This document shows, in pieces, positions 1 through 2,698 of a stretch of DNA of 2,698 nt. The DNA lies in the NCBI RefSeq assembly GCF_003334255.1, contig NZ_QOWU01000131.1; one strand, 5' to 3'. The stretch is from Escherichia coli. GTDB lineage: Bacteria; Pseudomonadota; Gammaproteobacteria; Enterobacterales; Enterobacteriaceae. How positions within the stretch are numbered: position 1 is the stretch's first letter; each line of letters starts with the position of its first letter. Under the pieces are notes generated by a model. It saw only the letters and a list, made by a program, of their open reading frames with translations, did no database searches and was not told the DNA's origin. The translations under genes and the position numbers were made by a program.

Positions 1-174
1 GCGTATCACGCGCAATACGACCCCAAATAAAGCAACCTGCCTTCCACCCCTCAATTCGGGCGCCCTTCCCTCGTCGCCTGCGCACTGCAATTGCCTCGTT
101 TTTCGTGCACCGTGCAAACCGGCCTCAGCCAGCGCCGTTACTGGGCTGAATGGGGATGAAACACATAAGAAAAA

Positions 175-819
175 TTGTGCAATTTCGTGCGCTTTTGTGC
201 ATTTTTTATCTTGCGATTTTTGGGGGTGGGTGGTGATGATAATCATCTGTCTGAATCAGTGGTGTATTGCCGGGTGAGAACTGTGAAAAATTACTCATAT
301 CCTTATTTAACTTTTGTCACGCTTTCTGTTTTGGGGGGGATTTTTCTTTTTATTTGGTGGCGAAACGATGTTTACAGAATTACCTACCTTTATTCGTTCA
401 CGACAAACTGCCTTGTTTCAGTGTCTGTGGTGCTTTCGGTTTTTGTCTCACTGTGCCTGTTGAAAAAGAACCTGGTTGATCGGTCTAAATTTACCGGGGT
501 TACATCGTATCTTAAGTTTTTTTCGGGTATGTGCCTTCTTACCTGGATGATTCTGTTTACCCTCCTGGTTACGCTGATATATTTTCTTCCGGGTGAAGAT
601 TCATTCTATTCCGCTCCCTATGAGTACAGTCGCGGTAGCTCAAAAAGTTGTTCAGGGGCATTTGTTGATGATCCTGATTTGCAAAAAACAATCTTTATTT
701 GCTACCCATACGGTGACTATCAGGATGGTAATGTGATTTATGTGAAGAAGCGTGTGAATGCGCTGGGTGCGGTGGTCACCTATGCATACGCGACAAGCGG
801 CCGATTTCGGTTTGACTGA
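175..819 (+). CDS. putative small multi-pass membrane protein (hypothetical); start codon uncertain
   Basis: Frame open for 214 codons with stop TGA at 817-819. Translation shows three hydrophobic stretches (YLTFVTLSVLGGIFLFIWW, LVSVSVVLSVFVSLCLL, CLLTWMILFTLLVTLIYFL) followed by a ~75-aa Tyr/Phe-rich hydrophilic C-terminal region. No in-frame ATG until 529-531; candidate starts are TTG 175 (no SD) and GTG 283 (weak SD-like GGGTGAG at 272-278). Composition is T-rich and A-poor: by hand count, G+C is 22/60 in 301-360 and 23/60 in 361-420, versus 32/60 in 1981-2040. That bias suppresses stop codons, so the N-terminal half could be open by chance; a second frame (267-479) is also open here. Confidence 0.4.
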   Translation: MCNFVRFCAFFILRFLGVGGDDNHLSESVVYCRVRTVKNYSYPYLTFVTLSVLGGIFLFIWWRNDVYRITYLYSFTTNCLVSVSVVLSVFVSLCLLKKNLVDRSKFTGVTSYLKFFSGMCLLTWMILFTLLVTLIYFLPGEDSFYSAPYEYSRGSSKSCSGAFVDDPDLQKTIFICYPYGDYQDGNVIYVKKRVNALGAVVTYAYATSGRFRFD

Positions 820-833
820 AAAAAGAAATCCTG

Positions 834-859
834 TGTTACCCTCGCTGCTGAGGGTAACA
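834..859 (-). terminator. putative intrinsic terminator hairpin between convergent genes
   Basis: Perfect inverted repeat TGTTACCCTC (834-843) / GAGGGTAACA (850-859) around a 6-nt loop GCTGCT. It lies 10 nt downstream of the stop of the last minus-strand gene (869-871). On the minus-strand transcript the stem is followed by CAGGA and then UUUCUUUUUU (828-819). On the plus strand there is an A-tract before the stem and no U-tract after it, so plus-strand function is doubtful. The 5-nt spacer before the U-tract is not ideal. Confidence 0.5.
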
Positions 860-868
860 TGCGTGAAG

Positions 869-1186
869 TCATCGCCCGGTTCTTGAGCTGATAATGCTTT
901 GCGTCAGCAGCTGCCAGCCCTCTTTCTGTTGCCCGTACTTGTCCTGATACCTGTTTACCTGCAAGTTTCCGTGCACCAGAATCAGATCGCCTTTTCTGTG
1001 TTTTGCCAGTTCTTCGTGCTGCTTCCCGAATGAAATAAGGTAAAGCCACATTGTGGTTGGCTGTTCTGCGCCATGGCAGGGTAGTGATACCGCCAGTTGT
1101 GCCGTTGTGACGTTGGTTCCTTTGGTTGTTCTCCTTGTGTTCGGGTCTGCTGCCAGTCGTCCATCTGTTGCAACCTGTGTTGGCAT
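869..1186 (-). CDS. single-stranded DNA-binding protein-like OB-fold protein, short form without C-terminal acidic tail
   Basis: ATG at 1186-1184 is preceded by GGGAGA (1197-1192); stop TGA at 871-869. The 105-aa translation aligns by eye with the OB-fold core of E. coli SSB recalled from memory: VATDGRLAADPNTRR against VILVGNLGQDPEVRY, and WLYLISFGKQHEELAKHRKGDLILVHGNLQVNRYQDKYGQQK against [43 protein letters not shown]. The protein ends right after the OB domain, with no Gly/Gln/Pro linker and no acidic DDDIPF-type tip. This is fold-level resemblance only and has not been searched. Confidence 0.6.
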   Translation of the reverse strand: MPTQVATDGRLAADPNTRRTTKGTNVTTAQLAVSLPCHGAEQPTTMWLYLISFGKQHEELAKHRKGDLILVHGNLQVNRYQDKYGQQKEGWQLLTQSIISSRTGR

Positions 1187-1218: not shown

Positions 1219-1557
1219 TTAGATGACTGGCAGCTCTTCGCCAGCGCCGTAGATAAACAGAATTCTCTTCATGATTTCGCTGCGCTTGCAGGCTTCAATT
1301 ACGGACGGCTCTTGTTGCCATTCTGCCCGTTGCGCCAGCTCCAGTCGTTCCTTTTCCGTTGGCTTCCGGTAATGCGTTATCTTGTCCGTGTACCCGTCCA
1401 CAACCAGCAGCCCTTCGCGTACCATCTTTCCGGCGGCCTGATTAATGATGGTCCTTTTCACGCCCAGTTTTTCAACCAGCTCTGGTGCGCTGAAGCGTGC
1501 GTGCGTTTCCAGGTAGCGTAAAATGATTACCTTTCCGGTCATTCTGGGTGTCTTCAT
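1219..1557 (-). CDS. putative winged-helix / HTH DNA-binding protein (hypothetical regulator)
   Basis: ATG at 1557-1555 is preceded by a perfect AAGGAG (1570-1565) with a 7-nt spacer, and overlaps the upstream stop as ATGA. Stop TAA at 1221-1219. The 112-aa product begins MKTPRMTGKVIILRYLE. The segment SAPELVEKLGVKRTIINQAAGKMVREGLLVV looks like an HTH recognition helix plus wing, as in Lrp/MarR-like regulators. The ORF track extends the frame to an ATG at 1626, but that start lacks an SD and lies inside the upstream gene. Confidence 0.65.
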   Translation of the reverse strand: MKTPRMTGKVIILRYLETHARFSAPELVEKLGVKRTIINQAAGKMVREGLLVVDGYTDKITHYRKPTEKERLELAQRAEWQQEPSVIEACKRSEIMKRILFIYGAGEELPVI

Positions 1558-1772: not shown

Positions 1773-2177
1773 TTACCTGCGTGATTGCCTGCTGGCGGCC
1801 GAATGCACATAGCGGACAATTGCCGCTTTTCGGTTAACGACGGCCAGCGTTCTTGCCAGTTCTTCGTTGAGTTTTCTGGTCTGTTTTTCGTGGTATGCCT
1901 GCATGATTTTTCCTACGGGAGTCAGTGGTTCAGGCTCTGATATGGCGCGACGAGGGCGCACGGCAACGATGAATGCGCTTCTGTCGGTGTTGGTTCTTGC
2001 AGTCAGGATGTCTGTCATGACGGTATCTGTGCTGCGATCGGGGTTTGCGATCGTGATCTCCAGTTCGTCGCCTGGCTGTGGTCGAACACTGACGCCGCTC
2101 AGCGTCAGTGCCGGAATGCGTCCACTCATGATGGCGCTGAAATCATGGCGCTGGAGTACACAATGGAATCGTGTCAT
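1773..2177 (-). CDS. hypothetical protein (134 aa)
   Basis: ATG at 2177-2175 is preceded by GGAGGTGA (minus strand, about 2192-2185) and overlaps the stop of the upstream ORF (ATGA at 2177-2174). Stop TAA at 1775-1773. Codon usage is consistent with the rest of the operon. I recognise no family. Confidence 0.65.
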   Translation of the reverse strand: MTRFHCVLQRHDFSAIMSGRIPALTLSGVSVRPQPGDELEITIANPDRSTDTVMTDILTARTNTDRSAFIVAVRPRRAISEPEPLTPVGKIMQAYHEKQTRKLNEELARTLAVVNRKAAIVRYVHSAASRQSRR

Positions 2178-2698
2178 GGGTTCACCTCCGGTTGATCTGC
2201 TGCCACCAGGCTTCGTGATTTCTCATCCCAGTGCACAATCCGCCCGTCAGGCAGGCGAACGCGTGCACCTCTGTGTACGGAAAGTGCTGCGCCACTGTGT
2301 AGCTCCTCGCCCGTCGCGCTCAGTGCCGACTTGATTACGGTGGTGGTGACGTCAGTCAGCGGCAATGCTGTACGCACATGTATGACGTCATCGGGTGTGG
2401 TGGGGCCGCCGGTTTTCACGGTTTTTGTGTCAGATGGCGCATCTTTCAGCTGCCTGGTGAGTTGTTTTCGCTCTGTGGGGGTCAGTGACCTTAACCACTC
2501 ACCCAAATCACCTCCCGGGACGACCAGTTTTTGTTCTTTCCTGGTTTCCGGTGGTGGGTTTTTACCCTCTCCGGTGTCTGTTTTTTCATCATGGGGACAG
2601 TTATTGCCACGAGTCCAAGGTGCGGCGAAGCCGCCCCCAACGTCAAAATCCTCGTCCGTGCTGTTGTCGGCTTTCGCTTCTTTTCTGACCAGTTTCCA
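2174..2698 (-). CDS. C-terminal part of a larger hypothetical protein, 5' end beyond the window; alternatively a 110-aa protein from internal TTG 2506
   Basis: I translated this minus-strand frame by hand from 2698 to the TGA at 2176-2174 and found no stop. Codon usage is enterobacterial-like (all Lys as AAA, Leu mostly CTG). The off-window N-terminal side is a Lys/Glu/Gly/Pro-rich segment (...DEDFDVGGGFAAPW...EKTDTGEGKNPPPETRKEQK...), followed by a ~110-aa C-terminal region. A TTG at 2506-2504 sits 4 nt after GGGAGGTGA (2516-2508), so an internal or alternative start is possible. The other minus frame, also open to the edge, is rich in rare Arg codons and was rejected. Confidence 0.55.
   Translation of the reverse strand, partial: WKLVRKEAKADNSTDEDFDVGGGFAAPWTRGNNCPHDEKTDTGEGKNPPPETRKEQKLVVPGGDLGEWLRSLTPTERKQLTRQLKDAPSDTKTVKTGGPTTPDDVIHVRTALPLTDVTTTVIKSALSATGEELHSGAALSVHRGARVRLPDGRIVHWDEKSRSLVAADQPEVNP

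Follow-up and report, generated by a model that had tools for sequence, protein, structure and literature searches.

How are two transcription units kept apart where an accessory gene runs head-on into the end of a replication operon? The question is raised by a stretch of 2,698 nt from an Escherichia coli contig (hereafter, the window), in which a perfect hairpin fills the 49-nt gap (820-868) separating two convergent stop codons, one at 817-819 on the plus strand and the other, of a gene encoding a protein resembling single-stranded DNA-binding proteins (SSB-like), at 869-871 on the minus strand. A preliminary description had placed the hairpin between convergent units, which is where it lies, and had read it as a minus-strand terminator with a U-tract, part of an inserted cassette and probably insulating the accessory gene from read-through of the operon. 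Our results suggest a different balance. The hairpin is probably a transcript-end stem-loop between the replication operon and the convergent cargo gene, acting as a weak terminator, as a protection of 3' ends, or as both, and on neither strand is it a canonical intrinsic terminator. The coordinates of the relevant features are given in Table 1.

Table 1. Features of the window and of related loci. Positions refer to the window unless a locus is named.
Feature	Position	Strand	Basis or remark
Probable cos site, GGCGACGAGGGAAGGGCGC	61-79	-	aligns with the P2 cosR cohesive end GGCGAGGCGGGGAAAGCAC; flanks 40-215
(T/C)GTGCA motifs	103-108, 111-116, 177-181, 187-192, 196-201		partly with a 10-nt period; in the cos-proximal backbone (100-205)
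Variable cassette	~206-870		homology loss against loci with other cargo; right breakpoint 871, 877 or 835
Cargo gene, 178-aa predicted membrane protein, WP_000801013.1	283-819	+	RefSeq annotation
T-rich run, TTTCTTTTTT	819-828	-	9 U in 10 nt; overlaps the plus-strand ORF stop by one base
Hairpin, left arm, TGTTACCCTC	834-843		inverted-repeat search, folds
Hairpin, loop, GCTGCT (+) / AGCAGC (-)	844-849		AACAGT in sister locus L008
Hairpin, right arm, GAGGGTAACA	850-859		inverted-repeat search, fold
SSB-like OB-fold gene, last in the gpA (replication) operon	869-1186	-	annotation, profile matches
MarR-like gene	1219-1557	-	
Second perfect inverted repeat, CACTGACGC-N6-GCGTCAGTG	2087-2110		9 bp; within hypothetical gene 1773-2177
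Two TGACGTCA palindromes	2347-2354 and 2383-2390		within the gpA 3' end
11-bp portal-side hairpin, CGGGGCATAAAAAATTTATGCCCCG	~230-250 nt left of the window start		L007 1439-1463; L002 2195-2219; L040 2497-2521; columns 25-49 of alignment A1
StbB hairpin	L040 4030-4060; L042, L044 ~2855-2885		loop and outer flank vary by locus
Cargo family and upstream region	L016 (phage 434) 2030-2806; L040 2880-3531		common to P2-like hotspots and phage 434
AGGCGGAG-N7-CTCCGCCT terminator, then TTTTGTTTG	L003 4100-4230	+	TumE-type locus with long spacer

The locus is a cargo hotspot of P2-like prophages

The whole window matches 22 complete E. coli genomes at 97-99% identity, and its annotated neighbourhood is a complete P2-like prophage, with ogr, D, tail, lysis and head genes, terminase and portal, a long minus-strand operon containing gpA, the gene of the replication endonuclease, and, next to dmsA, a repressor and an integrase. 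Within the window, the minus strand carries the 3' end of gpA, two hypothetical genes, a MarR-like gene and the SSB-like gene, whose product matches phrog_44 (1.4e-22) and also TIGR00621, the latter below that model's cutoff. Positions 61-79 align with cosR of P2 and the locus is therefore the gpA-gpQ region beside cos; the aligned stretch itself is a probable cos site. The region next to cos between gpA and gpQ is a hotspot of variable, often anti-phage, cargo, and its P2 version contains old and tin (Rousset et al. 2022, PMC9122126). The window has the same organization: it lies between the portal gene (gpQ) and gpA, and its cargo differs among relatives, related prophages carrying DUF4760 or a TumE/HVO_A0114 pair instead. 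The accessory cassette of the preliminary description is thus cargo within a known hypervariable hotspot, and the segment at 1-205 is conserved whichever cargo is present.

The conserved cos-proximal backbone also contains repeated (T/C)GTGCA motifs (Table 1). P2 has similar TGCA(C/T) repeats close to where the old-tin transcript starts, as does L040, a different P2-like backbone, and upstream of the cargo homologue of phage 434 there is a related motif that bears the annotation of a CII-site consensus. These repeats could be terminase recognition sites, or promoter or regulator sites.

The cargo ORF had been drawn from a TTG at 175, a start that finds no support. RefSeq and the homologues begin at a GTG at 283, and this annotation together with the homologue alignment make the latter the most likely start. 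The C-terminal half of the protein matches phrog_1416 (no known function), and searches of Pfam, PADLOC and NCBIfam gave no match. The protein shares 52% identity with CPT_434_36 of phage 434, a "putative membrane protein" encoded antisense in the pL region with its own hairpin downstream, a placement that we read as moron-like. It is also 58% identical to a hotspot protein of L040, and both of these homologues have 3' flanks unlike that of the window. The distribution of the family indicates that a whole expression unit is exchanged between unrelated phage types (P2-like and lambdoid 434). As an observation in its own right, the cargo family and its upstream region are common to P2-like hotspots and phage 434.

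A poly-G tract in the ORF (G7, 333-339) was considered as a site of phase variation and gave no convincing signal, since 24 of the 25 copies have G7 and one has G8. The G8 copy belongs to L007, the second prophage in strain DETEC-S792, where the gene is frameshifted and left unannotated; genome STEC17-183 likewise has no annotated CDS at the cargo position. The 5' region (206-282) exists as two alleles about 13% apart (10 differences, at 207-267) in genomes whose cargo ORF differs by less than 1%.

A stable and perfect stem

The inverted repeat consists of two 10-nt arms that are 100% complementary around a 6-nt loop, with five G-C pairs out of ten, so that its description as a perfect 10-bp hairpin was borne out. 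The slightly wider span first given to it, 832-861, corresponds to the arms plus two outer positions where G-U pairing is possible on the plus strand only; the plus-strand fold takes one of these G-U pairs, and has 11 pairs in all. Folding the RNA of both strands, a check that had been proposed at the outset, gave -17.6 kcal/mol for the plus-strand 30-mer (z -6.5) and -16.0 kcal/mol for that of the minus strand (z -6.1), and none of 200 shuffles was as good in either case. The DNA folds at -9.9 and -9.3 kcal/mol. The stem at 834-859 is also the centroid structure on both strands when the context is widened to 51-71 nt. When the whole window was shuffled 2000 times with its dinucleotides preserved, a repeat of this quality (perfect, 10 bp or longer, with a loop of 3-10 nt) turned up at any position in only 26 of the shuffles.

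The hairpin does not belong to a dispersed family. We considered a repeated or mobile (REP-like) palindrome and rejected it, because the E. coli copies are at this locus only (24 of 5426 genomes). In 100,044 species, represented by one genome each, the stem is matched exactly only nine times, always in unrelated taxa, which is near the chance level of about four that we estimate ourselves. Nothing overlapping 832-861 matched Rfam when the window was scanned at E<=1.

Why the hairpin is not a canonical terminator

The stem begins 9 nt past the stop codon of the SSB-like gene on the minus strand and 14 nt past that of the cargo on the plus strand. It has one of the attributes of a Rho-independent terminator, a stable G-C-containing stem-loop downstream of a stop codon, and lacks the other, a U-tract starting 0-2 nt past the stem, on both strands. 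In minus-strand RNA the stem is followed by CAGGA (829-833) and only then by UUUCUUUUUU. The overlap between the plus-strand stop codon and the minus-strand U-tract, which the preliminary description had pointed out, is literally true, and amounts to one base of a run that starts 5 nt past the stem. We computed tail scores of the d'Aubenton-Carafa/TransTermHP type, for which random 15-mers average 2.08. Counted from the stem, the minus-strand tail (CAGGATTTCTTTTTT) scores 1.75, below this random mean, and it would score 5.07 if the run hypothetically abutted the stem (TTTCTTTTTTCAGTC). The plus strand has no T-run after the stem, and its tail scores 2.41 after the 10-bp stem (TGCGTGAAGTCATCG) and 1.81 after a 12-bp stem (CGTGAAGTCATCGCC). 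A consensus terminator scan of the window allowing a spacer of 0-2 nt did not call the hairpin. RNAfold does not predict any lengthening of the minus-strand stem that would close the distance to the U-run; by inspection only, a 3-bp UUC/GGA extension is possible across a 5x2 internal loop, and it is marginal. Nor does the site have the form of a bidirectional intrinsic terminator: there is a displaced A/T run on the left (819-828) and none in the right flank, TGCGTGAAGTCATCG. The hairpin at 834-859 is therefore not a canonical intrinsic terminator on either strand, and the original call of a minus-strand terminator with a U-tract is overstated.

Could the site nevertheless work as an efficient Rho-independent terminator of the replication operon, the hairpin and TTTCTTTTTT together stopping RNA polymerase? 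The ingredients are present, with a stable stem shortly after the SSB-like stop codon and then nine U in ten nt, and the score of the run, were it adjacent to the stem, would be high. We nevertheless find this unlikely. The CAGGA spacer is what lowers the tail score below that of random sequence and takes the site out of reach of the scan. During intrinsic termination, RNA release usually occurs no more than about 7-9 nt from the stem base (PMC12207403), and given the spacer the hybrid would therefore contain only about three rU:dA pairs. Furthermore, the breakpoint of homology leaves the U-run on the side of the cargo, and relatives that keep the stem (L008 and L015, below) lack the run.

We favor instead the reading in which the stem shapes the ends of both transcripts. 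On the minus strand, it would form 9 nt past the SSB-like stop codon and, with the displaced U-run, would make a weak intrinsic terminator at best; on the plus strand, it would form 14 nt past the cargo stop codon with no U-run at all. Past the stem, in both directions, the RNA would be untranslated, antisense to the opposite gene and richer in C than in G, such that Rho could end transcription there. Exonucleases acting from 3' to 5' would then trim the transcripts back to the stable stem, which would set the 3' end of each mRNA, shield it from further decay and hold back convergent read-through. The hairpin has the form of a protective 3' stem-loop, being a stable stem with no U-rich tail directly after it. 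Downstream of the stem, the C/G ratio of the RNA is 1.4-2.3 on the minus strand and 1.3-1.7 on the plus strand (78-nt windows over the first ~140-160 nt), a composition that is compatible with rut sites, is not specific to them, and argues only weakly that Rho loads there. Termination, the protection of 3' ends and insulation are roles that we infer for the hairpin, and among them the insulation of the cargo from read-through, as first proposed, is plausible.

The stem can outlast an exchange of cargo

The prophage lineage that carries the SSB-like gene is rare (27 of 5426 E. coli genomes). A tblastn search of isolated phage genomes with the SSB-like protein gave no match, and the lineage is known from prophages only. 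It comes in four configurations. The window type is found in 22 genomes, with the membrane-protein cargo on the plus strand and the hairpin TGTTACCCTC/GAGGGTAACA with its 6-nt loop. Two genomes (L002) have a DUF4760 cargo, also on the plus strand, and the hairpin AGAGCGAGG/CCTCGCTCT (-15.4 kcal/mol). One genome (L003) has the TumE/HVO_A0114 pair on the minus strand, a 254-nt spacer, and the hairpin AGGCGGAG/CTCCGCCT followed by TTTTGTTTG on the plus strand. The last two (L008 and L015) have the same TumE pair as L003, on the minus strand, and the hairpin GTTACCCTC-AACAGT-GAGGGTAAC. A stable hairpin is thus found just past the SSB-like stop codon in all four configurations, in three unrelated sequences, those of L002 and L003 having no sequence relation to that of the window.

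A comparison with loci lacking the cargo ORF had been suggested as a way to locate the boundary of the cassette, and it placed the cassette at about 206-870. BLAST alignments with the window break at 1-205|871 in L002, 1-206|877 in L003 and 1-207|835 in L008. In the first two, the breakpoint lies past the hairpin, which is lost with the cassette. In L008, in contrast, homology breaks off precisely where the left arm begins (834|835), and the hairpin is kept beside the SSB-like gene with another cargo. It follows that the hairpin is not a strict part of the inserted cassette, even if it is always present, and identical, with the cargo of the window.

The L008 variant is informative on what has been kept. 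Relative to the window, 18 core stem positions are identical, whereas five of the six loop bases and the outermost pair have changed. The ends of the new loop form an inner A-U pair that gives again a 10-bp stem, now with a 4-nt loop, and therefore it is the stem, rather than the sequence, that was kept. Neither strand of L008 carries a U-run (its tails score 2.05 and 2.25), and L015 likewise has no T-run. Hence the hairpin, and not the T-run, is the conserved feature. This also accounts for the U-run of the window being out of register, because the run (819-828) sits on the cargo side of the breakpoint at the stem base. A stable stem past the SSB-like gene recurs, and is apparently selected. 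All copies with the cargo of the window are identical at the hairpin (22 genomes, 3 IMG/VR contigs and 12 metagenome contigs), and our search for covariation in IMG/VR and metagenomes gave identical copies plus the one known variant; the covariation evidence therefore comes from that single variant (L008/L015). Mismatch maps of six further copies show zero differences in 820-868, a stretch of only 49 nt and hence uninformative, 1.3-3.8% in the SSB-like gene, and 0-13% in 206-282 (13% in four of the six).

The L003 locus deserves a separate remark. Its hairpin, followed by TTTTGTTTG, is a canonical plus-strand terminator, located in a TumE-type locus with a long spacer. It is preceded by a possible tiny plus-strand ORF (ATGAAAAAAGTGTCTGACGAATTTGACGGCTTCTGA), at a place with no annotated gene, which could be a small RNA or small-peptide gene.

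These comparisons also bear on the idea that the hairpin is a neutral by-product of cassette exchange, a functionless palindrome left as a scar at a recombination junction. In its favor, the break of homology in L008 is exactly at the left-arm base, the L008 loop is nearer to the inverted window loop than to the direct one (4/6 against 1/6 matches, a statistically weak difference), and the corresponding junction of P2 has no hairpin. Yet, the sister configurations have stable hairpins of three unrelated sequences at this one position, the diverged L008 retains an intact stem with compensation of its length, and perfect 10-bp inverted repeats are rare by chance in shuffles of the window. Overall, we consider a neutral scar improbable, and the transcript-end stem-loop remains the better account.

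Boundary hairpins in other P2-like hotspots

The preliminary description had also held that inserted accessory genes typically have their boundaries marked by terminators, and as far as hairpins go this agrees with what we found elsewhere. In five further P2-like hotspots and in L040, perfect hairpins of 8-12 bp are common at module boundaries. One of them, an 11-bp perfect hairpin just past the portal gene, is identical in most of the sampled P2-like prophages and has no U-rich tail on either strand (Table 1). In backbones of the ParM/StbB type, a hairpin is found 6-8 nt past the stop codon of the StbB gene, with a conserved core (CAGGGCG/CGCCCTG) and a loop (AACT or GATG) and outer flank that vary by locus, and this variation mirrors the pattern between the window and L008. 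In several of the P2-like boundary hairpins the better U-tail is that of the plus strand, an orientation opposed to transcripts that come into the replication operon from the hotspot. Boundary hairpins are frequent and not obligatory, since P2 itself (NC_001895) has none in the 38 nt that separate its convergent orf91 and tin genes.

The same observations allow a more speculative reading, in which the boundary hairpins of the cos-proximal hotspot are preferred breakpoints for cargo swapping and not RNA signals only. Template switching or illegitimate recombination might occur at the extruded stem. We raise this because the L008 break is at the stem base, because its loop looks inverted, and because the StbB hairpin shows the same pattern, and we give it a low probability.

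Other roles of the palindrome

A perfect dyad whose spacer varies between conserved arms, as the L008 version shows, might also be an operator of a phage or host regulator, for example the MarR-like winged-helix protein, whose gene is 360 nt away. Several results make this very doubtful. The position is that of the 3' ends of both genes and not of a promoter; the half-site is not repeated over 14.7 kb of prophage sequence beyond one hit with one mismatch (three total matches also occur in 3 of 200 shuffles); near-identical regulators are encoded in the sister loci, where the hairpins are nonetheless unrelated; and the spacing is altered in L008, with its 10-bp arms and 4-nt loop.

Known primosome assembly sites are much larger than one 26-nt hairpin, which counts against a role in replication. 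That the hairpin would prime the lagging strand or load SSB on the displaced single strand is most improbable, even if P2-type replication is rolling-circle from the gpA nick (annotated on NC_001895) and the hairpin is stable as single-stranded DNA (-9.3 to -9.9 kcal/mol) and adjoins an SSB-like gene, as it has no likeness to known single-strand origins and no Rfam or repeat match, unrelated hairpins substitute for it in the sister loci, and P2 does without one.

Implications

The importance of this hairpin is limited: it helps to mark the right-hand edge of a cargo cassette among P2-like prophages of a rare lineage, the one with the SSB-like gene. The more general lesson is that calls of terminators made from sequence only can mislead at the ends of convergent genes. 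In this case the stem is conserved, and what looks like its U-tract came with the neighbouring cassette and stands out of register. Should boundary hairpins turn out to be a general property of P2 hotspots, they could serve to draw the borders of cassettes and to study how cargo is insulated from the replication operon.

Comparison with known systems

The hairpin at 834-859 is an ordinary feature, a fresh instance of a well-known kind in a hotspot that has been described. Its closest parallel is with the transcripts of E. coli terminated by Rho, in which exonucleases trim the RNA back to protective 3' stem-loops devoid of U-tails, with rut sites immediately after them (Dar & Sorek 2018, PMC6061677). 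As in these, the stem is stable, lies past a stop codon, has no abutting U-tail and is followed by RNA with more C than G. Unlike them, it has a minus-strand U-run 5 nt away, and the roles of Rho and of exonuclease trimming are putative here. The resemblance to intrinsic terminators consists of a stem with five G-C pairs out of ten between convergent stop codons and a T-run nearby on one strand. It ends there, because 5 nt separate the T-run from the stem on the minus strand and the plus strand has no such run, there is no flanking pair of A-tract and U-tract as in bidirectional terminators, and the site fails both the scan and the tail score. The cargo recalls moron cassettes by the placement of the homologous gene of phage 434, which runs antisense within the pL region and is followed by a hairpin of its own. 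However, in a moron cassette promoter, gene and terminator form one unit, whereas the hairpin of the window is also found beside the SSB-like gene with the TumE/HVO_A0114 cargo. Relative to the defence hotspot of P2, no defence function is known for the cargo of the window. In its organization, finally, the locus matches the old/tin hotspot of P2: an accessory gene beside cos, in the interval between portal and gpA, convergent with the replication operon and exchanged among prophages.
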